DNA of 63,759 nt, the filler included, from Nemertoderma westbladi (lineage: Eukaryota > Animalia > Xenacoelomorpha): NCBI GenBank assembly GCA_032718475.1. It is 3 parts of 3 records of this genome, joined end to end, with 100 filler letters (N's around TTAATTAATTAA, not from the genome) between each part and the next. Parts side by side here need not be neighbours in the genome. Positions count along the whole stretch, not along the records: positions 27,587 to 52,429 come from JAUCBJ010005645.1; 2 more parts are not named here. The stretch is one strand, 5' to 3'. Below the pieces are notes generated by a model. The model saw only the letters and a program-made list of their open reading frames with translations, was not told where the DNA came from and made no database searches. Shown here in pieces: positions 10,131 through 52,529 of this stretch. Each line of letters opens with the position of its first letter. Positions within the stretch are counted from its first letter, which is position 1. A program made the position numbers and the translations under genes.

Positions 10131-10789
10131 TCAGACATTTTAAGCGAGCATTGCGATTTCAATGCTCCCACGATGATTGATTCACTTACCTTCATTAAGT
10201 CATATAATATTTTCATACTAACAATTTCCATACTATATACTTACTTATTTGTTTACCAGTAACTGTGAAAATAAGATAGTTAAGGAAAATAAACTCAATT
10301 AATTCCTTTACAATAATCCTGAAAATCAACAAATGATTATATCACAATCTTATAAAGTTATTTTATAGTCCTGTAAAGTCATAATGTGCCTAGAGTTATA
10401 TAAATGTTTAAAATATGTACATAATTCATCTTCCGTTGATATAATCGTTTAGGTTATATCGCTATAAAGGATTTCTTCTTATTATGTAAGTAATTACTGC
10501 TCGCTATGTAAGAGAATCATAAGAAAGTATATCTCTCGCATTCACTAAATAGGAATACTCATTTATGGGGTCTTTAATAACGTTTCTGTTTCTTGAAAGT
10601 CTGTTTCTTCCAAGTCTTCATCGTGTGTTTGTCGCTGTTTAATATATATGTGCTTGACATGTTTAGTAGTAGCAATCGACCAATTTCATTTATTTCTGTT
10701 GTTCGCGCTGATGTGATTTCGTTTTGAATTCTCTCTGTGCTTACTTACTCAGATAGTGACTAGTGAAGTTTGTTCCATTCCTCCATATG

Positions 10790-11380
10790 TATCATTATTG
10801 TACATCCGTACAGAAATAGAATCCGAGATGAATCCCTGTATTTGATTCCTTCGGTATGTAATCTTTCCTCCGGCTGCGAATGACTCAAAAGTCGTCAACC
10901 ATTCATCCGAATTCCTCTTGTGACATTCTGACTCTTATGTCCTCTGAATCCACATAGTGCACAATGCGTATTTATCCAGTTACATGCCACTAATAAATGT
11001 TCGAATCTATCACAATATATGCACTGCGTAACTCCTGTTTCTTTAGCAATGCAAGCTAACTTAATATGATGCCAACTTCCACAAAATCGACAACCTGGGT
11101 TTCAATATAGCTGTTCCATACGATGTTCCTCTATTGGATCTCGATACGATGATCCACTTCTTTGCTTTCATGATTCTTTGAGACGTCCGTTGCTCAAGTC
11201 CGATCTCTCTGGCTGCCATTAGAGCCTCTTCTAATTGTTGCTTGTTTATAATTACTTGTTCCCTCAACTTCCTTTGATTTTCTTTATCCTTTCGTATTAA
11301 CTCCATTACAGTTTGTCATTTTCTCAATTTTCTCAATCAATCTCAATTTTGTCATTCTTTTCAATTTCTCCATTACAGTA
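10790..11380 (-). pseudogene. Decayed ORF: coiled coil followed by three CCHC zinc knuckles; homologue of the BEL accessory ORF at 28587-30603
   Basis: Reverse complement of ~10850-11100 reads PGCRFCGSWHHIKLACIAKETGVTQCIYCDRFEHLLVACNWINTHCALCGFRGHKSQ, then after a frameshift CHKRNSDEWLTTFESFAAGGKITYRR. The coiled-coil segment is ORF 11061-11306. Confidence 0.7.
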
Positions 11381-14279: not shown

Positions 14280-16778
14280 CTACTACTAGGTCGAGCGAAC
14301 TCGGACAGTGGAAATGAGATCCTTCCAGGCTTCCCGATTCTCCATAGTTGTCGCAATTTCGTTTCTCCCAAGTTTAGTACCCCTTTCAAGTTGATCTATA
14401 TATGTTATGGCCGGCTGTTACGACTACTCTTTTAATGAGTTGGTTGCCAGAGAAGTAGATCTGGTATGACCTCGTCTTCACTTTGCCAGCAGTGCCCACT
14501 GAATCTTAATCTGTGTTCACGGAGGGTGGTTGATACAGGTGCTATTGTACCATAAAGCTCGGCGTTTGTCATGTGTTGCCTCCAGCTGATGTTTAGGGCT
14601 GCCCTTAGTAGTCTTGTGTACCATCAATCCGTTGTTCAAGTGATTTAGTCAGCGTCCAGGTCTCACCCCTGTATAAAAATACACTTTCCACTGTGGCTCG
14701 AAAGAACTTAGTCTTCAGGTGCCTGAAGAGATCTGATTTCCAGATGGTATCCATTTTTGATAGAGCTGCCCAAGCCTTTGCTTTCCTAACTTCTATGTCC
14801 TTTTTGCTACTCTCTATCCATGATCCAAGGTACTGGAAGTCGTCGACCTTCCTTAGTTGATTATTATCAATGGTTGTCAAGTTTCCATCAACATTAAAGG
14901 ACATGAATACGGTATTGGTAGCATTTATATGCAATCCAACCTCCTTAGCAGCCCTCTCCACTTTATTTAGTAGGAGCTGTGCATCTGCTAGCGTGTTAGA
15001 GAACAGGGCGATGTCATCCGCAAAGTCGGTGTCTGTGACTGTAGTTGCCGGATATCTACTACTTCTGCGTTCTTGAAGTGTGAATCCCAGATCTTCACCC
15101 TTTGTGGCAGTCCTCATTGCGTAATCCAGCACAGTTACAAATAGTAATGGTGCTAATGTGTCACCTTGCAGTACGCCAGCCAGGATTGAGAAAAACTCAG
15201 TTTCACCATATGGTGAGAGTACCTGTGCTTCTGTGTCACAATATAACAATCCAATGCCAGCAACAATTACTTCTGGTATTCCATAAGCTCTCAGGATTTC
15301 AAGCATTTTACCTCTATGGATGGAGTCGAAGGCCTTCTTGAAGTCCACAAAAGTCATGACTGCAGGGAGATTCTTTGACTTAATTCCTTCAATCAGTCTC
15401 CATAGTGCAAGTATCTGAGGTATCTGATCTACTTGGTCGAAATCCGTTTTGGCTCTTACGCAGTAGTTTCTCTATGTGAGGCCTAATCCTAAATAGAATC
15501 ATTTCATTGTATATTTTGGCAGCTACCACAAGCAGACAGATCCCACGGTAGTTTGTTGGTATGTCGAGGTCTCCTTTCTTGGGGAGAGGCTTTAGTTCAC
15601 CTTTAGTCCAAATTGGTGGTGGCTTTTCCCCTTTTAACATCCGGTTGCAAACATTCAATAATGGTCTGTTTAGCACTCATGTTCCTGTTTTCCATACCTC
15701 CGCTGGGATTTAATCTAATCCACTCACTTTAATATTGGACATGCTTTTAATGCTTCTTTGGAGTTCGGCAGGCAAAGCGGTTTTGAACTTCTACTGTGTA
15801 AGCATCATTTACTGCATTGTCAGTCCTGAGTTTCTCCCAGTCATAGTTGATTGCTTGCTTGTCATGGGTTTGCTGGCTCTCAAACTGAGTCTGATCTCTG
15901 CAGTCACAATTCTGTGTTCCGAACCAATTAGGTCGAACGAGCTGTATGCCTCGCAGTTGATCATGCTGTTTCACCACTTTTTGTTTATAAGGATGTAATC
16001 CAGTTGTGCTTTGGTTCCATTAAGGTACTGACAGGTCCATAGCTTCCCCTTACTCTTTTCGAATGTGTTGTTTGTTGGTATCAATTCACATTCTTCCATT
16101 AGGTGTAAAAGTAAGTACCCATTTCTGTTAGAACTGGTGTTATAGGTGTAACCCTTGATGTCTTCTGGGCCAATTTGCGCATTCAGGTCACCAGCAATGA
16201 CTTTAACATTGTGTTTCGGAATGTCCTTTATAAGTACAGTCAGTTCTTCATAAAACTTGACTGCTTGTTCTGGCTCTGAAGCATTGGTTGGACTGTAGCA
16301 ACATATAACTGTTGCCTTGGGATTCCCATCAAATGTTGCGATCATAACCCTGAAATTTATAGATTCGATGTTGTTTAGTGTCTTAAGTGCAAATGGGCTT
16401 ATCAGAATTCCTACTCCACCAATTGATGCATTGGCCGAGTTTCTTACTGCTGAGCTTGTTACTAACTTCCATCCACCTCCAATGTCACTGTACTTCATGG
16501 CAGTGTCTTCATGACAAATCCGATGTTCTTGGATGTAGATGATGTTGTGTCGATGTTATATATTGCCAGAGCGACCATGTCACCCTGTTTGGTACAGTAT
16601 GTGCTTTCAGCGTGCATGCGTTCATTGTAGCAATCTTGAGTGTCTTTTTACATTTCAACAGGTTGGTTCTTCTTTCTTCTCTGTGTTCAGTTCCAGTAGC
16701 CAATTTATCGACCCCAGCCTGGTGTACCACTGAGGGACGCGGTCCTTGTTGACTCGGGCGACGACCGAGCCGGTATTT
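14280..16778 (-). mobile_element. RTE-clade LINE (family A), 5'-truncated and internally deleted, inserted in the CR1-group RT
   Basis: EN: IATMNA, CYSPTN, AGDLNAQIG, QLDYILIN. RT: NYRGICL, SQNGFRP, FVDFKKAFDSI, GVLQGDTLAP, DFADDIAL. (TAG)n tail. 14-bp TSD GTATATCTTGTGTA at 14266-14279 and 16779-16792. Confidence 0.95.
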
Positions 16779-17598: not shown

Positions 17599-18135
17599 TA
17601 TATGCAATGAGTGTTTCCTCTCCGATATTATTTTTATTGTGCAACACCCTTACGAGCGACGCAGTTTGCATTTGTGCAGGGAATTATGCCGAGTTAGAAA
17701 CGGCGAGTTGGCAATAGCAGGGTTTTCAAATAATGAAATTGGGATGCTTTTGGAGCATGTCTCCTCAGACTGATTCTACCTACCTTACATTACTTATATA
17801 TATATTTATATATTTTTCTTTTTTTTGTTGGTAATTTAATTATTGTGCTCCTGTACTACCATACGATTAGTATATTCCCATATGTTATGTACGAAAGAAA
17901 TTAATAATAATAATAATAAGGGAAGCCTGTTGGATTGCAGACGTATATTTTATAGCAGGGCATCGCAAATTTTTGTCATTTGATTCAAAGTATACTTATC
18001 AGAAATCATCTTCAAAATGTCTTTTCTAAAGAATTTGGCGATATTGTATAGTTCGTAGATAACAGTTTGTTGCTGGTCTGATTTTAAGGTTATAAGCCTG
18101 GATTTAGGTTGGATTAGATTGGTAGGGAGAACAGG

Positions 18136-19359
18136 TGTAAAAGCTTTTGCGTAATTAGCCGGTTATTATCCCCGTAAAGTACTCTGTGGTTGGTTTACCA
18201 GGCATAAAAAGGCCGTGTCCTTGCTGTACTGGTGTTTTGGAGGACATAAAAGCCATTTCTTCTGTATTTGTACTTTAGAGGACATAATCTGCAATTTCGT
18301 GACGTAAAAGGCTCGATACTCTTGAAAACAGTGTCGCTACCATGACGACGGCTAACGGCTGATATTGCCACGTTGCAACTTTCTGTATCTGCCAATAGGA
18401 TTTGAGTTAGTTTTGATTTCGACCTATCACAAATCTACTGAACTGAATTTCCTATCTTTATGCTCATTCTCTGTGGTGGGTGGAAGCCTTTGTAAATAAG
18501 GTTATTCTTATCAGTGTTCAGTGTTATGTTTTTGCCCAGAGCCTAAGAACCGGCTTTTGGCACCTCCGTGTTTCAGTCTTTAGTCTTACATTAGTAGGCT
18601 CAATTATAGAACGTATATCTGTTATCTTAACTTAACTTAACCACTCACGAGTTACACAAGTTAACTCATTCACTTAATAATCATTTATACATTAATATTA
18701 CTGCTTTTACTGTCGGTCATTCATTATATTGGTTGATGAAATATTATATCGGAATACTGATCAATAGTCAGACACCCCACCTTCTTGATATACTAAAGGT
18801 TAGAGAGACCGGTTACAGATAAACGATTGCGACCTGTGTTGAGTGGTTTGAAGTGAATCTAATGCTATTTCATATGCCCAACATAAATTGTCTGTTGCTC
18901 TCTTTATACGTGACCAAATTTAGTGAAGGTCGGCAGATTAGTGTGCAGTATTGTGCAGCATTGTGTATGAGTGTAACTGATAACAAAACATCTCCTAAAG
19001 AATGTGCCATATACGTGAATCTATAGCCTTTTCGTTGTGACTAGTTTAAGTCATAACTCTGTTTATATAGATAGAGCGCCACGTCCTAAAGGAACTGTTA
19101 ATATTTCCCGAAAGTGAATAATATTTGTCAGAAATTATATATCACGATCAGTCGAATAATACAGTAGGCTTACACCATCAATCATTAAGCCCCGAACTCA
19201 GTCTCCCGGGTATATCCAACGGGTGAATGATTGCGCATAGACTGGCTTCGGCTAATGTAGTGTATCAAATACTCGTCATAGGCTAAAGACTATCTATCAT
19301 CCAAAAGACATTCTAATTTTGGCAGGTTAAACTGTCAAAGGTCTTTAAAAGCGCAAACA
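18136..19359 (+). repeat. 5' LTR (1224 bp)
   Basis: Starts TGTAAAAGCTTTTG and ends AAAGCGCAAACA. Aligns by eye with 30682-31846 from the CCAATAG motif (~18392) to the end. Confidence 0.9.
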
Positions 19360-19370
19360 ATAACAGATAT
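19360..19370 (+). promoter_or_regulatory. Candidate self-priming primer-binding site (ATAACAGATAT)
   Basis: Directly abuts the LTR end and lacks the TGG start of a tRNA PBS. Exact reverse complement of LTR positions 18615-18625 (ATATCTGTTAT). Confidence 0.65.
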
Positions 19371-19645
19371 TGCTTCTGGATTGCGGTGTAAGCAATCTAG
19401 TCGAAAGTACCGGTTGACCGGTAACCAGTAGGCCTGACTGCCTGATCATCCGGACCGGTACCTACAACAGTACAGGTACAGCAGTATTATTCGATTGTGA
19501 TCTATTGTATACTGTAGGCTGCCAGGGGAATAGGGATTGATCACCCCTCATTCTTTTGTAAAGTTTACTTATTTCTGCAAGTTTTATTTGTTTGTAGGCC
19601 AGTATTGAACAGAAGGCGTGTAAGCCTGATCAGATTGTGCAGACA

Positions 19646-20215
19646 ATTTGTAGGTTGAACTGTTGTCTGATTGCTGTTAAGTCTGAACGGATTGCAGTGT
19701 GTGTAGATCACCTGTCCGATAAAGAACGGTTAGGAAGTAGGGGCAGCGAATGCTGTAAGGTAAACCCCCAACTAAAGAATAAGTCGTACTACTGGGTTAG
19801 AACGCATACTACCTAATTATTTCGGAGTCTGCATGTCCTGTAGTTTATTTAGGCTTGAGAGTAGTCTGCCATCGTTTAGTCTGTACTTTGTTTGTGTAAG
19901 TCTGTACGGGTAGCGTATAATATTTATTTAGATAATTTGTAGGCTGGATAGTTGTCTGGCTGTTATTAGGTCTGAACGGATTGCAGCTTGTGTAGATCAC
20001 TTGTCCGATAAAGAACGGTTAGGAAGTAGGGGCAGCGAATGCTGTAAGGTAAACCCCCAACTAAAGAATAAGTCGTACTACTGGGTTAGAACGCATACTA
20101 CCTAATTATTTCGGAGTCTGCATATACCGTAGTTTGTTTAGGCTTGATAGTAGTCTGTCAGTGTTCGGTCTGCATTTTGTTTGAGTAGTTTGTACGCGTA
20201 GCGTAATATTTATTA
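19646..20215 (+). repeat. 289-bp direct tandem duplication in the BEL leader
   Basis: GAACGGATTGCAG at 19685 and 19974. The central ~120 bp are identical between copies; the flanks have diverged. Confidence 0.9.
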
Positions 20216-21534
20216 TTCAGAGTTTATGCGATTATTCGCAACATTCATTCCCCAAGTTTGTTCCTACAGTAATTGTGTTTGTTATACATACCGCTATAGT
20301 TAAATTAACCCCGGTACTACACGGGCTGCTTGGCGTAGGTAAAGACTGGTGATTTTGTGCACCGGTCACTCCAGCAGATGCCGTGGTTCTTTTAGCTGTT
20401 CAAATATATTTAACTACTGATTATATGTTGTACAAGTACTCGTACCTAATTTAGGGTTTAGTGTACAGTGCTTTCCGAAAGTAATTAGTGTAGGCATTAT
20501 ATTTGTGTTGTAAAGTGGTTGATAGGCACATTCGATTAGCTCTATTAACTTCTAGGTAGGAACACTCCGTGATACATAACGTAGAACCTATAGCGATACG
20601 GCTATAGGTCGTCAGGCGGTGGTATTTTCCTATCTGGACAACGCAGTGTATTTACTACTACGTATTATTTTCAAATACCGCAGTACCCTGTCCGTTGTAA
20701 TAACCAGAATTCTAACCCTTTGTTAGGCTGGTTTGTAGACTTCTTGTAAAATTACCCTAAAAATTTCGTATTTGTGTTTTTTGTAAATTTTTGTGTTTAT
20801 TTAGAGATTGTAATCTCACCCGAATTGTACGTAATTTGTAGTATTAAGTAACTTAGGTAAATTAGCATTATTTGTTTTAGTGTCCTATAAGTAACACTTC
20901 ACTGAAAGCACACCGCTTTGTGTAGTGATTACTCCCCAGAAATAATAACATTTATTTCAAACATTGACAAAAACCCATTAAAACGGGTATATATATATTA
21001 TAAATCAAATCTAACGATTTATAAATAGTAGGCCTACCATACAACCATTAGGTCTCAATATCAGTTGGATTACTGCTCAAAAAACGGTAATAAAGTAAGT
21101 AAAGTAACCAAGTAACCCTAAAATTCAGAAATTCAATTATTTAAAATAATTGATATACCGGTATTTACGATAGGCCTATTATCTTTATTTCTATAAATTT
21201 AGGCTGAAATTATACCGGTACTTTATAATTAATTCTAGTCCAGAATTATACTTATATATACTACAAACTGTAAGCTGTATACCGGTATTCCCGATAGGCC
21301 TATTATATATTTATATATATTTGTGCTAAAATTATACCGGTATTCTGTGATAAACCTAGTCTGTAATAATAGTTATATATACTATAAGCATACCGGTATT
21401 CTAATATATTATATATATCACGCTACACTGAGTAGCAGTACCGGTAATTAATTACTAGGCTAGCAGTTAATACTGAATTACTAGACTTGCTTAGACTGTA
21501 ATATAGCAGTAGGCATTCAACTGTACTCACAAAC

Positions 21535-24500
21535 ATGTCTGATACTACTCTGAACCTGTCAGACAGTCTATTAGATGTAACTATCTGCGACTCAGATAGA
21601 GATATAGAACCGTCTAGTCGTAAGTTCAGTTCACCTCCCACTGTGAGGAAGGTCATCCCTCCAGTAGTAATAAAAGAACCTAGGCTGGTCCAACATCGTA
21701 GGTCTATCATAGGCACTCGAGCTCAGGTCAAGCGGGACCAAGAAGCAGCGGAACAGCAACAACCCGCGAGCCAAGAACTTACTTCTCAACGGCCCAACAG
21801 CTCCAGTAGTGAGGATACTGTAGAACTGACACCCGAGCGCGGAGCAAGGATGACGGATGCGGTTTATTCGGATCCCCTTCTCATCCTTCCTGCAGCCGTA
21901 CTCACTAGGTTATTGATCGCTGTGGAAGAACACCAGATCGATTGGGCGAGAAGCCAGCGTTCAACTAGAGATAGTTATGCTGGATACACAAGGGAAGAAC
22001 TGAAGTCCATGGTCGAGTCGCAATGGAACTTCCCCGGACCCGGACTCCCGTTTGATTTATCAGAAGCTGCCTGGGAAGGCTGCCAAGGAAACCATCGATC
22101 CAGCTGTATGGAAGAGGTCCGCAGCCGGATACGCACAGGGATTCTTTAGCTCTATGGAGCGAGTAAAAGGACAACTGTTTCAACAACCACAAGGACCTCA
22201 AGAGCAGGGACAACTGCTTTATCAAGTTAGAGAAAGAATTCTACGAATCAGGCTAATATTATCGGCCTTTGAGGAGGCTTCTAAACGAAGGCAAGACACG
22301 TCATTGCAAGTTGCCGTAAAGACTTGGTTTCAAAGGGTGAGTCTCCAGGTTCAAGGAACAGCTCAGTGGAAAGCTCAGCTGGAAGAGCGCTCAACCCATG
22401 GAGAATCAACAGACGCTACTTTTTCCCAAGTGGAAAGTGAAGCGACGGCAGAGAAACCGCATAAGAGGGATGCCATTGACATCTATCTGTCAGACTATCA
22501 ACGTTTTTTAGGTGATGACGAGTTGAGGAGAAGGTTAGAGGGACTTAGCCCTAATAGTGAAGGAACCAAGCTAGTGTTGGATGCCATCGATGTGGAAATG
22601 AGGGCTGCGAATCAGGCTAAATTTGATGAACAACTCCGCCTGACACGAGTCCAAGAACAACAAGTAAAGAAAAAACGCATAGAAGACAGAAAGAAAGCAG
22701 CAGTGGTAGCTGCAGAAGCAGAAAGAAAAGCGGCAGCGGCAGAGGCAGCGGCAGAGGCAAAGGCAGCCGAAGCTGAAAGAAAAGCGGCAGCGGCAGCGGA
22801 AAGAAAAGCGGCTGAGGCAGTGGCAGAAGCAGAACGGAGAGCGGCTGAAGAAACCATCCAATTAGAATTGGAAAACATTCAGGAGAATCAAGACTGCATA
22901 AATAAACAGTTAACAGCTAGTAATATGCAGATGATGAATCGATCTACTCCCAAAAGACAGGGATATACATCATCTGAAGAAGGCGATACCACCGATACTG
23001 AAGGCAAAGGAAATAGATCTCGTCTAAGCAGACGTAAAAGAACATTCCACCATCAGAAATTGCCTGATTTGCCTCCAGCTGTTAGAAGGCAACTAAATAA
23101 CACCAACTTAGGTAGTACAGAGCCCACAGACCAAATAATTAAAATAGAAAGACTCCCTACGATAGTAGATGAGCCTGAAATAATTAGGCCTGTTCTTGAA
23201 ATCACCCCTTCGGTGATAGACACACCTGTGCTCCCTGAGATTACCTCTAAACTCCCTCTGCATAGCACTAAGCTACCTGTGCCCCGTAGAACTGCCCAGG
23301 AGACAGTTCATGTCCTGGACCCCGAGCGAAATATTCATGATTTGTCGCCCGTTGTCCCTTGTCCGCCCGCTACAACGTTGGCGACTCCCGCTTCGGTGGT
23401 CGAATGGGTGGACGAGAGACGGCGGGGGATGGATCTCCTGCTCGGGCAGATGCAGGAGACTGTTCAGCAATTTAAGGGCACAGTAAGGGAAAGTAGGCTA
23501 GAGTTGCAAGAAGTGCAGCAAAGTATCGCGCTAGAACGCGATAAATTAGTAAATACCCAAAAGGGTATACCACCACCCTCTGTAACAATGTGTCAACCTG
23601 TTAGGTCTGAAGTATCGCATGCGCAAGGTGTGGAGCCTACACGCATCTATACTGCTAGCGAAGTAGAAACTCCTATAGTGAACCCTATTAAGGGTAATTA
23701 TAGACCTGTTGATAATGATATTCCATATAGAACTGATCATAATCCGAGAAATTTATATACCGATAACTCGATATTAAATAACACGATGGCCCAAGAAAGT
23801 TTTACGCGTCAAATGGCTAGAACCGAAGCCCGGCAAGCGGTAAAGGTGGGAGAGATCGTCAAGTTCAATGGAGATGAGATGAAATGGTTACCTTTTAATG
23901 AATATTACAAAGATAACATACAGAACTCTGTACTATCTAATGGAGAAAAACTTAGATACCTCATCGAGTGCTTGGAAGGATCTCCCAAGTTAATGGCGTT
24001 AAAGTTTATTGGACATCCAGACGGATTAACCCTATTAGTACCGGGCTATAAAATGTTGTACAAATACCGGGAGGGGGTCATATTGACCCCCCCCCCTCTA
24101 AAATCTACAAATATTTACGAAAACGTCTGATTTTTTGTTTGTACGTAGGTATCACTTGTCTGGATCCGACCGAAAAATAAAATTTTCGAAAAAATGTACT
24201 GGGGTGGTTATATTGCAGCACCAAAATTACAAGTAGTGCACAATTTTCACAAAATTTGAAAGTTACATTTTCGGCTAATTATTTTTCAATACAGGTTTTT
24301 TGGGGTGCAAAATACATTGGAAAATATTTAAAATTGATATGATTACTATAAATGGCTGTTTAGTCCTCTCTGCGTAGGAAAAAAATGAAAAAAACAAGTA
24401 ACCAGCACTTTTCAGTTAGAACACAAAATTTTTAATTCACTTATACGATGCTATAAATTCACATTTTCAGGTTTTCGAGGGCGCTGATTCTAATGGAATA

Positions 24501-27486
24501 CATTTCTAATATGCCAGATCATTGCTACTTGTATTTTTCGGCGTAATTTAGCAAATTTTGGTGCTAGCACCAAATTTCGTACCCATCACCAAAAAGTACA
24601 AGTTTGCGATGTCCAGTGCTGTTTTTATTGATTCCATCGGATTCAGGACCCTCATAAACCCGTATAACGCAAGAAACAAGGTGATACTATCTACTTATCA
24701 ATTTGCATATTTTCCAAAATTTGGTGCTGGCACAACAATTTTCACCCACCGGCGAAAAATACAAGTTTGAGAACTCCTATGAAATTGTTACTGATTCCAT
24801 TGAATTCAGAACCATCACAGACCCGTATAACGCAAGAAACAAGGTGACACAATCAATTGACATATTTGATGGTTTTCAAAATTTGGTGCTAGCACCACAT
24901 TTTGCACCCACATCCGAGAAATACAAGTTTGAGATGTCTAGTTCGATAATTATATTTTCCATTGAATTCACAACAGCCATAAACCTCTAAAACGCAAGAA
25001 ATAAATTGTCACAAGCAATTTTATATATTGAATGGATTTTCAAAATTTCGTGCTAGCACCAAAATTAGCACACAGCACCGAAAAATACAAGTTTGATACG
25101 CTTGGTTCAACTCGTATATATTTCATCGAATCCAGAACCTCAAAAAACCCCAATTGCGTAAAAAACAAGTTTCAAACAATCAATTTACAAAATTGACTTA
25201 TTTCAAAATTTGGTGCTGGCACCAAAATTTGGCACCCATCGAAAAAAACAAGTTTGAAATTTCTAAATCAATTTATATGAATTCCATCCAATTTCTAACA
25301 CCAAAAAACCGGTGTAAATCAAAAACCGAGATGTTACAATTCATATTTAATGAAATGTAATTTTCAAAAAACGTCTCAAAAAAAGTGCCAAAAGTAGGGT
25401 TAAAAAATGGTGCTATAACTCGAAAAGTTCCCAATATTTTTGAAAACGGTTTTCACTACCATGACGACAATAGATTTTTAGGAAAAGTCATAAAATTTCA
25501 GATTCCCAACTGCGTTTGTTTCATAATTATTATAAAAAAACCACGGGGGGGGTCATATTGACCCCTCCCCGGGTTTAATAGGGTTAAGACAAGTTTGGGA
25601 TACACTAAACATCAAGTATGGTAATAGGAATAACATCGCTGGGTATTTGTATGCAAAGTTAGTAGCGCCCCGAAAGTTTATTAGCAGCGGAATTATCGAG
25701 TTTTCCGATGAGATTCAGGAGATCTGTAGACAATTAGATTGGCTAGGTAAGTCTCAGGAGTATCAGAATGCTATGGTTATTAGAGCAGTGGCTTCTACTT
25801 TACCGAAGGGTGGAGTAGGTACACGCTGGGATAAGAAAGTGTTATATATGATGGAACAACAACGACGAGACCCTACCATGGCTGATCTCATGTCATTCCT
25901 AGATGGAGAAGTGAAATTACAGCTCCTGAAACTGTCCAGAGAGAAGACACCGGAAAACAAGGTAAGCGAAAAACCCGTCTCTAGGAGAAAGGTAACACCA
26001 GTGTGTTATACAGACGACGGCGAAAGCCAGACTTCTCAAGGAGAAGATAGCGGGAAAGACACTGAGAGATCTTATTATGTCAATAAAATGCCTAAAGATC
26101 AGGTAAGTAAATTCAAGTCTCGAGCAAATGACAGGAGAGAACAGGTAAGAAAAACTCCTCCCACGTCTCCCAAGAGAATTCCGGTGAGAAAGCCCGAAGA
26201 AAAGGCAAGTGTACACAATGTGACTCAAAATAAGGTAAGTAACATCAAACCAAAATGTGCGCTGTGTGACGGGACCCACCGTTTGAATATGTGTGATGAA
26301 TTCCTGAAGAAGTCATTAACGGAGAGACGCGAAGTCATGTGGGATAAGCGGTTATGTTATAATTGCCTCAGACAAGGACACCAACGGCGTACCTGTTTCT
26401 CTGATATAAGGTGTGCAAAGTGTGGTGCGAAACATCATATCTTGTTGCATGCTGAATTCGAGCGAAATAGTCCGAATCAGGTAAGTGATTCCGAGCTACA
26501 TGTCCAATTCAGTGATGTGAACGACACTGATCAATCTGAGATGGAAGGATTCTATACGGACGAGTTCTCCGACGAAAACGAATCCTGTTACATGATAAAT
26601 ACCGCAGTGTATCGAGCACTCACCTATGAAAAGGATACAGACAACGACTTCACTCTAACTACTTCTGAGCGACAACCATCTTGGAAAGAGCCATCTTCCA
26701 ATATAGGGATCCGAGAGTTTCCTGTGGTGCAAGTAAGGGTTCACGGACCTAAGAGGAGTTATGTAGTGAACGCCCTCCTTGACTCCGGTAATACAGGAAC
26801 ATTCATCGACAAAGAGCTAGCCGAAGATATATTTGCTGGACAACCCAAGTTCCAAACTAAGCTCAACATGTCCGGCATTATGCAAGTTTGGAAATCTACA
26901 ATAACAGCGGATTATTATGTAGGAGCGTTGTCCACCCCCCAGGACGAACTAGGAGAACATAGCATAAGGTCAGTGAAAATGGTGGCTATAAAGAACTTCG
27001 CTACTACTCAAGCAGACCTTTATAATTGGGACGAGGATGAGAGCATCCAACATCTTAACATACCTCGATTCCAGACTGATTATCCTGGAGTGCAAATACT
27101 CATCGGCCAAAACGCGCATGAGGCGCTGGAGACATTAGAGAAACGGCCTGCTCAACCGCAGCCACTACAGACCTATGCGGTAAGAACTAGAGTAGGTTGG
27201 TACTTTACTGGCCCTTCCCGTAGAACACTCAGAGAAAGACTACCGCAAGAGCGCGTCTACCAGGTGAGTGAATGGGAATATGATACTAGTGAGGGAGACG
27301 ATTTAACTGAGGGAACCCCATACTCCTCAGATAACGACGACGTGCACCAGCTTTTTGATGAGGAGAATACCATCGATCTCCTTAAGGAAAGCGAGGCTTG
27401 GCAAAACCAAGTTAACTTATGTCAACTTCTCTATCCATCTGAACGAGAAGCTTATAACGACGAGTTAAATGACGTCATTGAGCGTT
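21535..27486 (+). pseudogene. gag-pol: BEL gag-protease polyprotein: one +1 frameshift, a DNA-transposon insertion, truncated by the gap
   Basis: ORFs 21535-22149 and 22052-24130 join at ..EAAW|KAAKETID (extra G ~22073). Removing 24030-25587 restores PDGLRQVWDTLNIKYGN. Knuckles CALCDGTHRLNMC, CYNCLRQGHQRRTC, CAKCGAKHHILLH; aspartic protease LLDSGN. Confidence 0.9.
24030..25583. mobile_element. Non-autonomous piggyBac-type DNA transposon (1554 bp), copy 1
   Basis: TTAA TSDs at 24026-24029 and 25584-25587; termini CCCTATTA..TAATAGGG; subterminal GGGGTCATATTGACCCC palindromes; internal ~125-bp subrepeats; no transposase ORF. Confidence 0.92.
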
Positions 27487-27586
27487 NNNNNNNNNNNNNN
27501 NNNNNNNNNNNNNNNNNNNNNNNNNNNNNNTTAATTAATTAANNNNNNNNNNNNNNNNNNNNNNNNNNNNNNNNNNNNNNNNNNNN
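27487..27586. other. Assembly spacer (N44-TTAATTAATTAA-N44)
   Basis: N runs around a six-frame-stop linker; same as 52430-52529. Confidence 0.99.
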
Positions 27587-28586
27587 TACCCATCTCAAAT
27601 ATTAATTAATTAATATTTGCAAAATCTAATAAATCAAAATCTGTAAAATTCAGATCCTTCAATAATTCTAGTCAATTAAGATATCGTAGCATTTACCGAT
27701 ATTCTTAAAAAAGACAATTGTCATAGAATTAAGGATCTTGTGTCCCTAGACATGTTCTAGAATCAAAATATGTCCATTTAATTATCAAATAATAAAATTT
27801 CAGGGAATAAATTTAAATTCATGCCTTTTAATGAATTTAATAAATTGCCATTTTTACGCAATTTATAACGTTCCCAAATTTCCATTAATTAATAGATCAA
27901 GGGAGCGGAGATTTATCTTATTATGCGTATGAGTGTGTGAAAGTCTCCCAAACATAGTCAATAGCCGATAAAATTCATAAAGTCATGTATAAAACAGAAC
28001 ATTGACTATTAAAGAATACTATTAAATAACATCCCAGATCTGTATGCATTGGAATTACCCTAATTCTACCGCTAGCTTTGCATAATGTCACCATAGCAAC
28101 AACCACGCTAGAATTAGAATGGAGTTAAAAGAACAATAGAAAGCTTGTCCCATTGAATAGCATAGGGAATAAATAGCGCACTACTAGTATCCAAGGATAC
28201 ATAATAATACAGTGACATTCTGGAAGGCATTGACTAACGGACAAATGGCCCGAATGTGCGTAGTTGTGACCAGTTGTGTGGTATTTGTGAGTTTATAGGT
28301 GAATGTTACTGCTAAAGTGTGTTTACAGTAGCTAGTCGCAATCGTAAAAGTAACCTAACTCTCCAAGGAATACCTGAAGTACATCTAAGCCTTTGGGACG
28401 GACAGTTGAGTGACTTGTGCCGGTTATCGTTGTCGTTGTACGGTCGTTGGCGAAAGTATAGCGACAGCGGTACATCGGCGCTGAGAATCTCATACTGTCC
28501 GGGGGCAAGGGAGAAATAGGCAGCGACGCCCGCTCGCCTAACAATATATAAACTCATTATAATATTGGTGAACTCGTATAGCAGAT

Positions 28587-30603
28587 ATGACTGAATTAAT
28601 AGAAGATGATCTTGGTATCAGGGAGAGATATACTCTACCTTTACAAGCGTTTGTCGATAGCTTGATACGCGGCGACGCTGATCCAACTACTACGGAGGAC
28701 GATGGTCGTTATATCGAACCGCCAATGTCCCAGGAGCAACTTACGCGTGAATTGGACTATAGAAAATTCACTGCTCGCTATACGCATCGTAATGGTATGT
28801 ATATGGACTTCTTAACTACCGGCCATCCTATTGATTTACACGACACCGACGATGTCGATACCGAAAGGGAAATGGTTTTATTTAAATATCATACCCAGCG
28901 GAGTCGAAACGACAAATCGAGAATAGAACACGAGAACTCTATTCGAAATAAACTCGAAAGAGAAGACGTTGAAGAACCTGATAAACGTAGCGGCTTCAAC
29001 GAATACGACTTTCGGAATATGGAGAACATTCCATATCCCTTCGTTGATATATTTTGATGGACCATTAACTGCGCCTGGTGCAGTATATAGCTTTATGAGT
29101 GTTCCACTTCGCCCTTCCTTAGCTATATACACGATCTTTGAAAACGCAGCACTTGCCGGTTGGCTAGCCGATGTGTGCAGTCGTACCATACGCGCTCACC
29201 CGTTAATACTTGAAACTAAACTCGCCAAGTTAGACGAACACAATAAGTTCATACGTTTCGAATGTTTCCGGCGCTTTCTGACTCCGTTCCGTAACGTCGA
29301 TAGTCAGTTCAAGGATCGCGCGCTGACCAAGCTCAGTCTTAGAGACTCAGCTGCGGAGAAACTGAGTAGCGCTGGATTTGCCGTCTTTCAAGACGTTTGT
29401 ATACAGAACCTACATTCATCCGTTATACAAAGACCCCGAATATCTACAGGTTATTCTGTCGTGGAAATACAGACAGTGGGTCCACTTACTGAGACAGACG
29501 CACCCACTTCGTCTATACAACTGGAGGATGAACCAGTGTGCTTGGAATCAGAAGCGATTCAGCCTACAACTTCCCGGAGAAGTGACAATGATTATGTCAT
29601 AGAGTGGTATCAAGGTCCACAGCGTCTCACAGCGTACGATTATCGACACGCCAACTACGTTTCTCGAAAACGTTGTCGATTATGCGCATCGAGAGACCAC
29701 TTCACTCCTCTAGACTCGAGCGTACCTTGTTCCTATTTCCTCGAACAACCGATGATGGAAATATATTGTGCTTATTGCCGGCTTAATAACTCTCATATAT
29801 TTGCCGTCTGCCCACAATTTATGACTCAATGTCACTACTGTCAATTTAAAGGACATGAAAGTTACAATTGTCCCTTTAATCGCGATTTAGAGAGCGTAGA
29901 CGAGATGATCACCCTGCGATACATCCGAGCTTGGGAAGCGAACGCCGATTTACATTGCGAATCCCGACATCGCTATTACCCTGGACGAGCTTACGAGGGA
30001 GTTTACGCGTTCCATCCTTATCTATTCGCGTCGATCGAACAGAAAACACGCGTACCAAGTTACGAGTTAATGAAGCGTGTTGGTGAGTGTATTTCCACCA
30101 AGTTTGTCAGGAAATACCTTAGAAACGTTAACCCTAATGATATAACCACATATCACCTGATCAATTTTATCCGTCAGGACCCTGAGTATGGCGACATCTT
30201 TGTGAACTCGCATCCTGAACTACAGGAAATATCTCGGCGACCATATGAATATCGAACCCGAGAACGCGAGCTGGAGAGAACCATTAAACCGAGAAAGTTC
30301 CTCACTACTCACGGTCCACCCACCGCTAGTGTCCAGACGACCCGTCAAGGACCCGTAGGAGCTGCTGTCCTGAGACGCGCTCTAAAGGCCGTTAGACCTC
30401 ACTCCACTGAGGTTGATATTAATCAACCAGGTACTTCGACCGGCGGGTATACCGATCGTAACCCTGCACCTTCTGATGCAATTATATTGCACCCTTCGCC
30501 TAGGAGCTACAGCCCTCCTCGTAAAGTGGCTCGCCCCAAAGAGAAAATGACTCTTGCTAGCTTTAAAAAACTGCGTAAACGCCGTCCGCGCAAGAAAGAC
30601 TAA
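28587..30603 (+). CDS. Accessory ORF of the BEL element (~670 aa if one +1 slip is corrected): triple zinc knuckle, basic C-terminal tail; not env-like
   Basis: ORFs 28587-29057 and 28969-30603 fuse at GAT ATA TTT(T) GAT GGA. Knuckles CRLCASRDH..C, CAYCRLNNSHIFAVC, CHYCQFKGHESYNC; ends KKLRKRRPRKKD. No signal peptide or TM segment visible. The 3' LTR starts ~80 bp after the stop. Confidence 0.75.
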
Positions 30604-30681
30604 CTGTTTAGAGTATTTATGTATATTAGAAATTGTGATTTTGTATATTTTATAGACTTAAATCCCATTTTCTGGGAGCGG

Positions 30682-31846
30682 TGTAAAAGCTTTTGTGGGA
30701 TAACTGATTCGTTTGCCTTGCTAACCAGTTCCCCCCCAGTCGCTAGAATACTCTAAAAAGGGATCTCTAACTCGAATAGCACAAGCTACCGGCTGATTGG
30801 CTGATTCGCTGTGCGAAGGGATCTGGGCTACGTTTGATTGTCCAACTAGCTTGGGAAAGTATCTCCCAATAGAATTTGAGTTGATTTTGATTTCGACCTA
30901 TCACAGATCTACTGAACTGAATTTTCCTATCTTTATGCTCTTTCTCTGTGTTGGGTGGAAGCCTTTGTAAATAAGGTTATTCTTATCAGTTTTCAGTGTT
31001 GTTGGTCTTTCTTTCCTAAGCCAGGAGAGAACGGCTTGTAAATATTTTGTGCTTTTCTGTTTTAGTCTAACACTAGTAGGCTTAATTATAAAGGGCATAT
31101 ATCCGTTATCATAACACTGCATTTATCACAACATAACATACCATACCTAATCAAACAACCTGTGCATACTTTATATTGTTATACTGCTATTTACTGTCAG
31201 TTCTTCATAATATGGTTGATGAATTATTATATTTGGAATAACGATAAATAACCCCGAAACCCAATATTCTTGATATACCGAAGGTAAGAGAGAAAGGTTA
31301 CATATAACGATTGTGACTTATGTTAAAGTGGTTTGAAGTGAATCTAATGTTATTTGATAGACCCTACATGAGTCAGTCCGTGTTCCTTTTATATATAACT
31401 AAAATCAGTGAAGATCGGCAGATCAGTGTGCAGTATTGTGCAGCATTGTGTATGAGTGAACCTGATAACGAAGCATTTCCTAAAGAATGCGCCATATATG
31501 TGAATTATAACTAAGCCATATCGTTGTGAGTAGTTTAAGTCATAACTCTGTTTGTATAAATAGAGCGCCACGTCCTAAAGGAACTGTTAATATTCCCCGA
31601 AGGTGAATAATATTGTCAGAGATTATATAATACTGTCAGTCGAATAATACATTAGGCTTACATAGCAATAAGATTAAGCCGTCGAACCCAATCTCCCGGG
31701 TATATCCAGCGGGTGAATGATCGCGCACAGATTGGTTTCGACTAGTGTAGTGAATTAAATACTTGTCATAGACTAAAAGTGATTTATTATCTAGAAGACA
31801 TCATAATTTGGCGGGTTAAACTGCCAAAGGTCTGAAAGCGCAAACA
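30682..31846 (+). repeat. 3' LTR (1165 bp) preceded by a polypurine-tract-like GGGAGCGG
   Basis: Same termini as the 5' LTR. The first ~185 bp do not align with it; the rest is clearly homologous but diverged. Confidence 0.9.
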
Positions 31847-31849
31847 GTT

Positions 31850-32098
31850 TTGAAAGGTCCATAGCTTCCCTTTACTCTTTTCGAATGTGTTGTTTGTTGG
31901 TATCAATTCACATTCTTCCATTAGGTCTAAAAGTAAGTACCCATTTCTTTTAGAACTGGTGTTATAGGTGTAACCATTGATGTCTTCTGGGCCAATTTGG
32001 GCATTCAGGTCACCAGCAATGACTTTAACATTGTGTTTCGGAATTTCCTTTATAAGTCCAGTCAGTTCTTCATAAAACTTGACTGCTTGTTCTGGCTC
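31850..32098 (-). mobile_element. RTE family A endonuclease fragment flanking the 3' LTR
   Basis: Near-identical to 45714-45960. Confidence 0.9.
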
Positions 32099-32430: not shown

Positions 32431-35400
32431 TTTATTGTTGGGGTCCGAGTCGGGATTGTTTCCATCTACTTCGCTATCTCCTTCCTGCTCAGGACTCGAC
32501 TCATCCCTCATTTCTTCGATAACATCTTCACCCTGTTCCTCAAACGTCGCCCTCAAATCCCAAAGGTCCTGGAAGGAAACATAAGTTTGTAAATTAATAA
32601 GTTTAGTATAAGAACTATAATAATGTACAATTACCATTAATTCAGCTTTTTGTAAGAACCATTTGAAATATAACATATTTCCCTTGCGTTCTTCAATGTT
32701 GATAGTTTTCTTTAAATGTTGGCTCACTTTCTGAACCCTGATGATCCTATTCTGCCCGTCCTCCCGAGGGTGACGTGCAGACGGCGCAATCGGAGTGGCT
32801 GGTATGTCGGTCGCCTCTAGGATCTCCTCTTCCTCGAATACGCTCGCTCGTATACGGGGGTTATGTTGTCATATTTCACTCGTATACGGGGGTTATGTTG
32901 TCATATTTCACTTAGCAGTTGCAGTTTACACAATGTAAATAATGCCAGGTTTTCACTAAAACCACAGGTTAAAGAAGGGCTGAAGAAAACCAAAACAATA
33001 AACGAATTAGTATATGTACAGAGTATAAGATAGAAATGGGCGCTATAAAACACTTAATAGATTAATTATGACCCGGGTGTCCGAGTGGATACAGCGCCTG
33101 AATGCTTTCACAATAGCAGAATAGTGTTTGGTTTGGTGGCCCTGGTTCAAATCCGACTAAGGGCGGTATAAATTTCGCACCGTTGTTGTCTCCTTAACCC
33201 TATTAAACCCGGGGGGGGGAGGCAATATGACCCCCCCCCCCCCCCCAGTGGTTTTTTTATTATAATTCTGATACAAACGCAGTTGGGAATCTGAAATTTT
33301 ATGACTTTTCCTAAAAATCTAATGTCTTCCTAGTAGTGAAAACCGTTTTCAAAAATATTGGGTAGTTTTCGAGTTATAGCACCATTTTTTAACCCTACTT
33401 TTGGCACTTTTTTTGAGACGTTTTTTGAAAATTACATTTCATTAAATATTAATTGTAACATCTCTATTTTTGATTTACACCGGTTTTTTGGTGTTCACAA
33501 TTGGATGGAATTCATATAAATTGATTTAGAAATTTCAAACTTGTTTTTTTTCGGCGGGTGCCAAATTTTGGTGCCAGCACCAAGTTTTGAAATATGTCAA
33601 TTTTGTAAATTGATTGTTTCAAACTTGTTTTTTACGCAATTGGGGTTTTTTGGGGTTCTGGTTTCGATGAAATATATACGAGTTGCATCAAGCGTATCAA
33701 ACTTGTATTTTTCGGTGCTGTGTGCAAATTTTGGTGCTAGCACGAAATTTTGAAAATCCATTCAATAGATAAAATTGCTTGTGACAATTTATTTCTTGCA
33801 TTTTAGAGGTTTATGACTGTTCTGAATTCAATGGAATATATAATTATCAAACTAGACATCTCAAACTTGTATTTTTCGGAAGTGGGTGCAAAATGTGGTG
33901 CTAGCACCAAATTTTGAAAACCATCAAATATATCAATTGATTGTGTCATCTTGTTTCTTGCGTTATACGGGTTTGTTAGGGTTCTGAATTCAATGGAATC
34001 AGTAAAAATTTCATAAGAGTTTTCAAACTTGTATTTTTCGCCGGTGGGTGAAAATTGTTGTGCCAGCATCAAATTTTGGAAAATGAGTAAATTGATCAGT
34101 AGATAGTATCACCTTGTTTCTTGCGTTATACGGGTTTATGAGGGTCCTGAATCCGATGGAATCAATAAAAACAGCACTGGACATGGCAAACTTGTACTTT
34201 TTGGTGATGGGTACGAAATTTGGTGCTAGCACCAAAATTTGCCAAATTACGCCGAAAAATACAAGTAGCAATGATCTGGCATATTTGAAATGTATCCCAT
34301 TAGAATCAGCGCCCTAAAAAACCTGAAAATGTGAATTTATAGCATCGTATAAGTGAATTAAAAATTTTGTGTTCTAACTGAAAAGTGCTGGTTACTTGTT
34401 TTTTTCAATTTTTTCCTACGCATAGAGGGCTAAACATCCATTTATGGTAATCATATCATTTTTAAATATTTTCCAATGTATTTTGCGCCCCAGAAAACCT
34501 GTATTGAAAAACAATTAGCCGAAAAATGTAACTTTCAAATTTTGTGAAAATTATGCACTACTTGTAATTTTGGTGCTGCAATATTACCACCCCAGTACAT
34601 TTTTTCGAAAATTTTTTTTCGGACGGATCCAGACAAGTGATACCTACGTACAAACAAAAAACCAGACGTTTTCGTTAATATTTTTAGATTTTAGAGGGAA
34701 GGGTCAATATGACCCCCCCCCCCCCCCCCGGTATTTGTACAGCATTTTATAGCCAGGTACTAATAGGGTTAAGGAAGACACTTTAGACATTAGTGCTTAC
34801 GCCAACCCAGCGGTATAATGGGAACCTAGCTTTTGCTTGGGGAAAAAAATAACGCAGGCGCCCTTATAAGGCTGTAATAGTCCCCAAGGGCGCCTGCGCT
34901 AAAAAATATAAATGTATGTTTTATTTGTTTATTTTCGTTATGTTTATAAAGATAAATTAATACAAAATTCTTAATATAAACCATTTCGACCAAATAGTCA
35001 AATCATGGATTTTTTCATGGGTGTATTGTAGGCCAACAGCCCACCCCATTGTATACCAACAGCCCACCCCATTGTAGGCCAACAGCCCACCCCATTGTAG
35101 GCCAACAGCCCACTCCATTGTAGGCCAACAGCCCACCCCATTGTAGGCCAACACCCCACCCCATTGTAGGCCAACAGCCCACCCCATTGTAGGCCAACAG
35201 CCCACCCCATTGTAGGCCAACAGCCCACCCCATTGTAGGCCAACAGCCCACCCCATTGTAGGCCAACAGCCCACCCCATTGTAGGCCAACAGCCCACCCC
35301 ATTGTATACCAACAGCCCACCCCATTGTATACCAACAGCCCACCCCATTGTATACCAACAACTCACCCTACATCTGGACGCTGTATCATCCGAAGAGACA

Positions 35401-41400: not shown

Positions 41401-44400
41401 AATATTTTTTGAACCTGAAATAATATGGGTGTTGTTGTTTGCCTGGAGTGCCGCAGTAATATATATAAAAAACAATTAATGATTTCTTCGGAAATTATAG
41501 CAGCAAGACGCATTAATTTAGGTAATAATAACGTCACCTGCCAGAGAGCCAGTTGATATAGCTGAGGTAAATATAAGATGATTACCAATCCCGTGGAGTA
41601 TCATTCACACCCTTTAGGGATATCGACTTGAATACAAATTTGTCATATAATTAGCGGAGTATATCATTATTATCCTGACTGGATGACAGATATTCCCTAA
41701 CTTTATGACTTTGATAGAATATTATATACCACACACATCTTATTGAGAAACGACATATAATTCCTCTAAAGAAAGAAATGCCGTGACGCTGAGTAAGGTA
41801 TTGATTGCTGCTGCTATAGAGAACAGGGATTCAGGGATATTCATGTGGGGAATATTGTTGTCAATCTACGATAAATTAATTAGGAATTGTTTGCATGAGT
41901 TGCACATAACATATAGATTCCAGTGCTTTATCCTATTTCGCAGTGTAAACTAATGTGTTTGTATAATTTAATCCACGCCATAGATAGGCTCAGTAACAGT
42001 AAATTAGGTACAAAATAAGTTACTAATAATAATAATGCTGACCTTACACTACAAGCTATTATATTCTAGAACAGGAATGCATATATTAAACACGAAGTGG
42101 AGCCTTCGCGCAGAACGTGACATATGTTAAGTATCAACTCGAAATAATTATAAACAAAATATAAACAGATGTCCCATACTCATTTAATAGAATAATAATA
42201 ATAATATCAATCAAGAAGAAAGAATTATAAACATTAAAATGGGCTGAAGGTTTTCATTTCAGCTGCTACTGGACTACCGGTAGCGTTCTGGCAAGATTCA
42301 GCTTGAACCTATTAAAAGCAAATGAATTGGAGTTGAGCTGTTAATGCAACGCGCTTCCTCATTTCTTCCATTTCTGAACAAAACCATAATATTACATCAT
42401 TAAAAGCAGAGAAAGACATTTAATGTTTAGACATGTGGCCCTCTAGCGGGAGACTATTGTACTAATGGTGTATAAAGGTTTCTTGTTAATGCCTACAACT
42501 ACTACTACTATTATTATAATCGGGGTGGGCACATTGAGATGATATGATGGCTTTACCATCATGCAATCCGCAATAGGGTTGGTGCGCGAAAAATTGTTTT
42601 AGGCAGAAAGGAGACCTTCCTTAAACACGCTCTTTCGGCCGTTTCTTTGTGTTTTTACAAAAACCACACCCCGCCACTCGATTCAGGGCACCTTGTTACC
42701 CATTATTCGATTGTTTCTAGACTAACAATATTTTGTAGCACCAACCCTATCGGCATGCTCCAATGCAGCGTGCATTAATAATGCTGTGCCGGCTTATCAA
42801 CAAAATTGTTCCGCCACAACTCCCTATCACCCCATCACATTTGCTAGATCATCCGCATCTTCAAGGCCAGTGTACTTTAAGATGCGTCTCAAGAAAGTCA
42901 TGGGCTGTCCACCATGCTTATTCACTCCATGAGGCTGCCAAAGTACAACATTATGCACTGGCTGGTCCTCAAGGCGAAAGCAATGTCCTGCAAAGCCAAG
43001 TGTCAAGCTAGGGGAGATTAATAAACACCTCTAATGTTGTATAGCGTCTGATTAGATATGTCTTCATTGTACTTGACCCGGTATAAAGGTTAAAGGACAA
43101 ATATGGTAAAATAGTAGAAACATATGGGTCAACGTTTCTATGTCTAACTTTTATGGTTAACATGACAGATATTTACCTGGAGGTGTGAGGGTTGCTACAA
43201 TCTTGACTTTATTTACCTGAGGGTTGCTATGGGCACTCCTTTCATCCATTGAATGTCTATGAGACAACTTTCTCCCTAATTGCGGGACATCTAAACGCCC
43301 TTCCACTGATCCGTGGAGCAGTTGTCTCTCATTGTCAACTATTTGTTGATCGTAGATCCCAGTACGCCCACCACGACGGGGTGTGGAACCACCATCGTTG
43401 TACACTGAGTCATAGCGTGCAGATGTACCGGCAGTACGGGTGTCAGTGCCCCTAGATGGTGTGCCGCCAGTGCCACGTGGAGGTGTGCCGCCAGTGCCAC
43501 GTGGAGTTGTGCCACCAGTGCCACGTGTAGGTGTGCCGCCAGCGCCACGTGGAGGTGTGACACCAGTGCCACGTGGAGGTGTGCCGCCAGCGCCACGTGG
43601 AGGTGTGCCGCCAGCGCCCCTAGTTGGTGTGCCGCCAACGCCACGTGGAGGTGTGCCGCCAGCGACCCTAGTTGGTGTGCCACCAGTGCCACGTGGAGGT
43701 GTGCCAGTAGACCGCGGTTGGGGAAGTTTTCGCTCTCTGTGGCTATGACGATGGGGTGAAGAGGGTGCAACTTCTTGCTGAGCTAACCTGTGAGCATTAA
43801 CCGAAAAAAATGTAACAATTAATAATAAAAAAATAATAATGAACAATTACAAATAATACAAACAGGTTTTTATATATAGTATATACCTATTCATACCGAT
43901 ATATTATATTTTAGTTATTTATATATTAGTTATAAATTATTTGTATAAAAGATAGTTATACTACTACTACTAGGTCGAGCGAACTCGGACAGTGGAAATG
44001 AGATCCTTCCAGGCTTCCCGATTCTCCATAGTTGTCGCAATTTCGTTTCTCCCAAGTTCAGTATCCCTTTCAAGTTGATCTATATATGTTATGGCCGGTC
44101 GTCCACGACTACGCTTTCCATGAGTTGGTTGCCAGAAAAGTAGATCTGGTATGACCTCGTCTTTCCTTCAGTGCCCACTGAATCTTAATCTGCGTTCACG
44201 GAGGGTGGTTGATACAGGTGGTATTGTACCATAAAGCTCGGCGTTTGTCATGTGCTGTCTCCAGCTGATGTTTAGGGCTGCCCTTAGTACTCTTGTGTAG
44301 CAACCATCAATTCGTTGTTCAAATGATCTAGTCAGTGTCCAGGTCTCACCCCCGTATAAAAATACACTTTCCACTGTGGCTCGATTGCCAGGATTGAGAA

Positions 44401-52429: not shown

Positions 52430-52529
52430 NNNNNNNNNNNNNNNNNNNNNNNNNNNNNNNNNNNNNNNNNNNNTTAATTAATTAANNNNNNNNNNNNNNN
52501 NNNNNNNNNNNNNNNNNNNNNNNNNNNNN
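52430..52529. other. Assembly spacer (N44-TTAATTAATTAA-N44)
   Basis: As at 27487. Confidence 0.99.

Follow-up and report, generated by a model that had tools for sequence, protein, structure and literature searches.

The window, by which we mean the whole stretch of 63,759 nucleotides of Nemertoderma westbladi DNA that was analysed, holds two long terminal repeats (LTRs) in the same orientation, a gag-protease region behind the first and an extra gene in front of the second. The features that frame the extra gene are:

18136–19359, plus strand: LTR upstream of gag, TG...CA, 1224 nt, homologous to 30682–31846
21535–27486, plus strand: BEL/Pao-type gag and protease, running into the gap, with a frame change near 22100
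24026–25588: insertion of 1.56 kb inside gag
27487–27586, no strand: gap of 100 bases (44 N, a 12-base spacer, 44 N) directly after the protease, where reverse transcriptase (RT), RNase H and integrase are expected
27587–28586, plus strand: non-coding spacer, repeated together with the extra gene
30674–30681, plus strand: short polypurine tract (7/8 purines) abutting the LTR
30682–31846, plus strand: LTR downstream of the extra gene, TG...CA, 1165 nt

The gag region carries a triple Cys-His box at 26256–26450, to the left of the gap, which fits CX2CX3-4HX4C, CX2CX2-4HX4-5C and CX2-4CX3HX4H, and gag is followed by the protease motifs LLDSG and LIG. A triple Cys-His box in gag and LLDXG and LIG motifs in the protease are given as hallmarks of Pao/BEL in the excerpted text of PMC554778, and are thus shared with BEL/Pao elements including the env-bearing Tas, Cer7, roo and mosquito gB-like ones. 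The Pfam matches to DUF1759 in the gag region (E 0.001) and to Asp_protease_2 (E 0.019) stayed below the cut-off. The LTRs of about 1.2 kb (family range 0.2–1.2 kb), the polypurine tract and the presence of a third gene immediately upstream of the 3′ LTR are also as in BEL/Pao. Unlike in BEL/Pao, pol was not seen in the window, and RT, RNase H and integrase are absent from it because the gap follows the protease. This gap and a second one at 52430–52529, which has the same form (44 N, 12 bases, 44 N), are scaffold markers, and their 100 bases are not a true distance. No integrase end was recognised by eye in the short frames of 27587–28586, and no contig or locus linking integrase to the extra gene was found in metagenome and viral contig scans. 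The env position after integrase, which an earlier sequence-only reading of this DNA had assigned to the extra gene, was not recovered: the gene has the LTR on its 3′ side, and its placement downstream of integrase, on the side hidden by the gap, is inferred.

The two LTRs are 84% identical over 957 aligned columns, with 30 gaps and a K2P distance of 0.18 (about 18%). Their first 16 bases are identical and their ends match; beyond these 16 bases, the likeness of their first 250 and 178 nt was no better than that of shuffles. No target-site duplication was found at their flanks. A single old element with decayed LTRs was rejected, as 9% neutral decay should have left about 6 stops in the 514 codons of the gene's second frame, which has none. 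Because the LTRs differ by ~18%, the target-site duplication is missing and the second frame is free of stops, the two halves probably derive from a pair of sister copies that scaffolding placed side by side; that both LTRs bound one insertion was not confirmed. The extra gene is very likely part of an LTR element, and the kinship of the LTRs suggests with fair confidence that its family is BEL/Pao-related.

BEL/Pao elements have an 18-nt tRNA primer-binding site after the 5′ LTR. Directly after 19359 no TGG-led site of this kind was seen on inspection of the sequence alone, and in this the element may differ from BEL/Pao. The 11 bases that follow the first LTR (19360–19370) are the exact complement of 18615–18625 inside that LTR, and in the second LTR the complement has one mismatch, at 31099. 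A TATA-like site is located ~10 nt upstream of 18615–18625 and fits poorly with a transcript start there. Tf1 uses an 11-nt self-primer. A purine-rich tract at 18120–18135 precedes the first LTR, as would suit a 3′ LTR or a tandem junction; no third-gene homology was seen in the DNA upstream of the tract. The 2.1-kb leader between LTR and gag contains a 258-nt tandem duplication (90%) at 19641–20187. The insertion inside gag is non-coding, has internal 163-nt repeats and is matched by a 94% identical inverted copy at 33193–34772, 7.6 kb away. Rfam gave 0 hits over 17900–32000.

Structure of the extra gene

The extra gene and its immediate upstream region comprise:

28545, plus strand: TATA-like site in the spacer (lead only)
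Just 5′ of the ATG at 28587, plus strand: putative AG acceptor-like site in the spacer (lead only)
28587–29057, plus strand: first frame, 156 aa from the ATG, acidic
28927–30603, plus strand: second frame, 558 aa from stop to stop
29674–29871, plus strand: three CCHC-type zinc knuckles in the second frame
29926–30072, plus strand: post-knuckle segment, predicted helical in a low-confidence model, common to the second repeat of the database protein P0003
30562–30600, plus strand: Lys/Arg-rich, putative NLS-like tail, the last 13 residues of the second frame

The second frame overlaps the first, and homology and selection were observed in it from about 29060 onward. Its knuckles read CX2CX4HX9C (29674–29730), CX2CX5HX4C (29767–29811) and, six residues further, CX2CX4HX4C (29830–29871), and on their C-terminal side W-E-x-x-A and then a low-complexity stretch follow. 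The stop lies 78 nt upstream of the LTR start at 30682. The sequence-only reading, which had described three knuckles of this spacing followed by W/F-E-x-x-A, an Arg/Lys NLS-like tail and an end ~80 bp before the 3′ LTR, was borne out on each of these points. It had further described a protein with neither signal peptide nor transmembrane helix, which holds for the sequence present in this copy: the extra-gene frames contain no membrane helix (best 19-residue Kyte-Doolittle means of 1.19 and 0.46), and hydrophobic segments are missing at the ends, where a signal peptide and an anchor would be. Stretches absent from the window copy could carry a membrane segment.

Pfam returned nothing above the cut-off for the extra gene, the one match being zf-CCHC_3 (E 0.18, 12 bits against a cut-off of 27), and a match of the viral fusion glycoprotein type was found neither in Pfam nor among 1.84 billion representatives. 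The window frames, from a copy that appears incomplete, showed no DEDDy-type nuclease domain in Pfam. A fold search with a model of the knuckle region, built from the single sequence (pLDDT 46), gave no Z of at least 5. We consider it highly probable that the extra gene is not an envelope. Two candidate signals were discarded: an essential promoter at the TATA-like sequence of 28545, as many copies are without four bases at 28542, and a restart at the TGA/ATG overlap of 29055–29059, as its ATG is out of frame and meets a stop after three codons.

Copies, selection and the frame break

The whole or part of the stretch was present in six public sequencing runs from four studies, and the contigs of four runs were compared. 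Run X5 is RNA only by guess and no inference on expression was drawn from it. The region 27587–31846 was covered in 4/4 runs of four studies, and all 30 bins of 27587–32000 were covered. Contigs matching the stretch numbered 33,480 (X1), 8,098, 511 and 189 in the four runs, depth not being equal to copy number; the LTR family with the extra gene is plainly abundant.

Variation was analysed on the best-supported variants (40 of 735 and 40 of 94), a selection biased toward shared ones. Among the best-supported 40 of 735, 20 fall inside the extra gene: those in the first frame are all synonymous third-position changes (10/10), and those in the second frame are synonymous in 4/10 and non-synonymous in 6/10 cases. 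Within 28960–30120, the best-supported 40 of 94 variants lie at third positions in 30/40 cases (p 8e-8), are synonymous in 28/40 against an expected fraction of 0.23–0.29, introduce zero stops and hit 0/13 of the knuckle Cys/His codons. In the same best-supported 40 of 94, 26/34 of the shared variants are synonymous versus 2/6 of those near-private to the window copy (Fisher p 0.055), and crude omega is 0.12–0.18, not the dN/dS near 1 that the sequence-only reading had named as evidence against itself. No indel inside the extra gene was seen among the 12 shown of 98, a list that favours deep bins. Other copies carry further internal deletions, with some of the gene lost at 8 of 15 listed joints (of a total of 28). 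The extra gene is almost certainly coding and selected, and the family retains the reading frame while the window copy decays.

The two frames had been read as one ORF of ~670 aa with a +1 slip in a T run at about 29052. Two overlapping plus-strand frames are indeed present. No indels at ≥20% were listed within 28960–30120 in 4/4 runs, and copy-private substitutions in that interval show at about 100%. The sequencing data near 29050 thus gave no one-base frameshift, and instead showed paired loose contig ends at two places:

29002–29049, plus strand: two probable deletion junctions in the window copy, at about 29003 and about 29048

At about 29003, loose ends lie behind 29002 (six contigs of X1; X5, 151 nt) and before 29005 (four contigs of X3; X5, 121 nt). 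At about 29048, they lie behind 29049 (five contigs of X3; X5), and a contig of X4 matches 29048–29185, including the T run, with one difference and then continues leftward with 144 unlike letters. This second junction coincides with the frame break. The one-base slip at 29052 was rejected, as the sequencing contigs contain no such indel and the break resembles a deletion junction. Because the break points from both sides agree within 2–3 bases, the window copy has in our judgement likely suffered two deletions rather than a slip, with the reservation that short contigs could mask a small indel. It follows from two deletions that the intact gene is probably longer than 670 codons. The sequence-only reading is supported in that a zinc-knuckle gene, under selection and without a membrane segment, sits 3′ in an LTR family whose LTR is akin to that in front of a BEL/Pao gag-protease; the gene's place after integrase, its length of 670 aa and the one-base slip were not confirmed.

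Relatives of the knuckle domain

A HMMER search of 1.84 billion representatives with the window protein gave two matches, P0003 (633 aa, E 4.4e-4) and P0004, of which P0004 was rejected as a relative, its match resting on Cys/knuckle spacing only. P0003 is built of two repeats; in each, F-E-x-F-A-D and G-F-x-Y-F come after three knuckles. Against the knuckle-free segment that ends the second repeat, the window frame ranked 1 among 1407 six-frame segments (shuffle p 0.001); the post-knuckle segment of the first repeat did not match the window frame (p 0.68), and a two-sequence profile of the post-knuckle segments found nothing. A profile built solely from P0003 found the extra gene (E 2.5e-6) among the 1407 segments, but not the gag knuckles. 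One further stretch was detected with this profile:

10750–11101, minus strand: second, decayed copy of the three-knuckle domain, with LINE-like fragments on both sides (E 1.7e-7 in the set of 1407 segments)

No LTR was recognised beside this second copy. The frame that follows it, at 10574–10744 on the minus strand, ends in a Lys/Arg-rich tail resembling that of the extra gene. Pairwise knuckle scores ranged from 72 to 91 among the extra gene, the second window copy and P0003, and from 41 to 45 against gag; the extra-gene knuckles scored 72–81 against P0003 and the second copy versus 45 against the element's own gag. Together, the pairwise and P0003-profile results point to a small knuckle family which, as judged by sequence comparison, is distinct from the element's gag and has a single outside relative (E 4e-4).

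Word-based protein searches identified no relatives of the window protein (0/1899 candidates) and, with P0003 as query, P0003 itself (1/796); a three-sequence profile likewise gave P0003 itself (1/1103, proteins of 596–2000 aa). Scans of metagenome and viral contigs for the window protein yielded 0/128, 0/4 and 0/48 candidates, no P0003 relatives were found in viral contigs, and two Atlas searches gave generic CCHC clusters only, all <0.9. No orthologue among host CNBP, AIR or gag-like proteins appeared, and no sign of an unrelated nested element was seen, two further outcomes that the sequence-only reading had listed against itself. Among solved structures, profile matches covered the knuckles only, the closest being 7c42 (a CCHC-domain protein, E 5e-6) and Lin28 (about 1e-3), followed by HIV nucleocapsid and Air2 (0.09–0.11). 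The extra gene shares tandem CX2CX4HX4C-type knuckles with Lin28, retroviral nucleocapsid, Air2 and 7c42, and differs from them in the X9 and X5 spacing and in the post-knuckle segment, with no orthology.

P0003 is also without a membrane segment (best 19-residue mean 1.38) and gave no nuclease match in Pfam or PDB. Its N-terminal part (positions 124–780 of its locus, L001), for which a single-sequence model was poor (pLDDT 31), looks by eye like a 3′-5′ exonuclease in its motif. Locus L001 is intronless. After P0003 it contains a purine run with TG at about 2315–2322, TATATAA at 2872, AATAAA at 2905, CA...TGG at 2954–2967 and an ORF from 3390. Read by eye, this may be the gene-LTR-leader-gag start layout of a collapsed LTR element, which we take as a lead only; no second LTR and no duplication were found in L001, and the last ORF had no Pfam-supported gag.

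Comparison with known elements and possible roles

The third gene described here consists of zinc knuckles and a basic tail, unlike the membrane glycoprotein genes of BEL/Pao. The C. elegans element Cer7 may also carry an accessory ORF that is not env. The ICTV profile of the Belpaoviridae gives gag, pol and env-like genes only and calls their replication poorly understood (PMC8742986), and the extra genes of BEL/Pao in the accessible portions of PMC3118150 and PMC13524379 are env-like only. The premise of the sequence-only reading that extra BEL ORFs are envelope-like agrees with the ICTV profile, but non-env third ORFs are documented in LTR elements of bdelloid rotifers (PMC5408684) and of plants (PMC7264820), and this lowers the surprise of the present finding. 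Accessory genes are named for retroviruses, caulimoviruses and some gypsy clades in the excerpted PMC2774666. No description of a zinc-knuckle third gene in BEL/Pao was found in the full-text literature, in a search of mostly open-access papers and mainly of listings that partly missed the slash spelling 'BEL/Pao' and had Repbase and GyDB entries and the PMC3118150 supplements outside its scope.

Taken together, the extra gene is a real, selected, non-membrane gene, probably of a BEL/Pao family, with a knuckle-plus-helix domain that has no Pfam name. The rotifer elements Juno and Vesta are gypsy-like. As would be the case in the present family, a non-membrane third ORF occupies their env slot (ORF3, a DEDDy exonuclease or a GDSL esterase); it has been proposed to aid replication and is common to unrelated retroelements (PMC5408684). 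Unlike the extra gene, which has no recognised enzyme and shows a synonymous bias, these ORF3s are recognisable enzymes with near-neutral within-genome variation. The ORFs between pol and the 3′ LTR of plant Grande, RIRE2 and Retand resemble the extra gene in being conserved and without database matches, and some are nuclear with a proposed regulatory role; they differ in belonging to gypsy/copia elements and in being often antisense, and the word 'zinc' does not occur in the available text of PMC7264820, from which these statements are taken.

A role of the extra gene as an RNA helper falls a little short of an even chance. Single-stranded RNA is the ligand of the CCHC knuckles in nucleocapsid and Lin28. 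In the specific form that we tentatively favour, while giving it clearly less than even weight, the gene product would be a nuclear helper that binds RNA, comes from a subgenomic mRNA and acts in trans on the element's own transcript. In whole copies, the extra gene would lie downstream of pol, and its protein would be made from a subgenomic, probably spliced mRNA with its acceptor at the AG immediately 5′ of 28587; spliced messages are the typical source of third-ORF products in LTR elements (PMC5408684). The basic tail would carry the protein to the nucleus, where the knuckles may bind single-stranded element RNA, like those of retroviral nucleocapsid and Lin28, and the protein may chaperone, protect or export the unspliced genome. 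Supply in trans would leave many copies free to lose the middle of the gene. If true, genes for regulation or RNA handling belong to the repertoire of BEL/Pao elements as well, and the extra gene offers a concrete protein for studying how, in an invertebrate, the unspliced RNA of a retrotransposon gets out of the nucleus or evades silencing. A broader proposal, which we regard as speculative and rather doubtful, is that an undescribed nuclear triple-knuckle family sits in the env slot of LTR elements of distant hosts (the window family and L001), and that these BEL/Pao elements are 'complex', their Rev-like gene for RNA handling possibly being linked to tRNA-independent priming.

The high abundance of the family (33,480 contigs in X1) and the exonuclease-like appearance, by eye, of the N-terminal part of P0003 would also suit an anti-silencing or RNA-processing factor, which would recognise element RNA or chromatin through its knuckles and block or trim silencing by small RNAs instead of acting as a chaperone or exporter of the genome. 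The DEDDy exonuclease third ORFs of rotifer LTR elements, for which a role in RNA 3′-end processing or silencing has been proposed (PMC5408684), offer a precedent; however, neither P0003 (Pfam, PDB) nor the window frames gave a nuclease match, and we consider such a factor unlikely. Another reading, distinctly unlikely in our view, assigns the extra gene to a separate or non-autonomous LTR family with LTR ancestry in common with the BEL/Pao copy; the halves would then be neighbours through scaffolding only, and the gene would have no BEL integrase upstream. The gap at 27487–27586, the flanks without duplication and the K2P of 0.18 next to a 514-codon frame without any of the roughly 6 stops expected after 9% neutral decay would be explained in this way, yet the common LTR termini and the 84% identity over 957 columns make close kinship hard to avoid, and the two halves lie on the same strand in the expected order.

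We give little credence to a protein that binds DNA or chromatin in order to direct integration or switch on the LTR promoter: the nuclear-type tail, the acidic N-terminal frame and the zinc fingers are consistent with one, as are the nuclear, putatively regulatory plant ORFs in the available part of PMC7264820, but the closest solved knuckles (Lin28, nucleocapsid, Air2) are RNA binders. A captured host zinc-knuckle gene of CNBP or Air2 type, carried as passive cargo, appears very unlikely. Generic CCHC proteins as Atlas neighbours (all <0.9) and a second copy elsewhere in the window without a recognised LTR alongside would fit such a capture, whereas the synonymous bias among element copies does not, and a conserved host gene should yield many matches rather than 0/1899 candidates and just 2 in 1.84 billion representatives. 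A degenerate envelope-like gene that lost its membrane parts in the window copy is least credible, since its position just before the 3′ LTR, the two stretches that this copy appears to miss and the env-like nature of known BEL/Pao third genes are outweighed by the CCHC knuckles, the basic tail and the lack of a hydrophobic segment at either end, P0003 being without a membrane segment as well (best mean 1.38).

Other mobile elements were observed around the extra gene and the LTRs. Several fragments, 88–97% identical and located at 14278–16778, 43962–46455 and 31851–32098, belong to a LINE-like element that has endonuclease and RT domains; the last of these comes immediately behind the second LTR, whose flank it may have eliminated. 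An ORF at 4954–6324 encodes a Ulp1-type protease domain (Peptidase_C48, E 2e-9), adjoins a 460-codon ORF without Pfam match and is likely transposon cargo.
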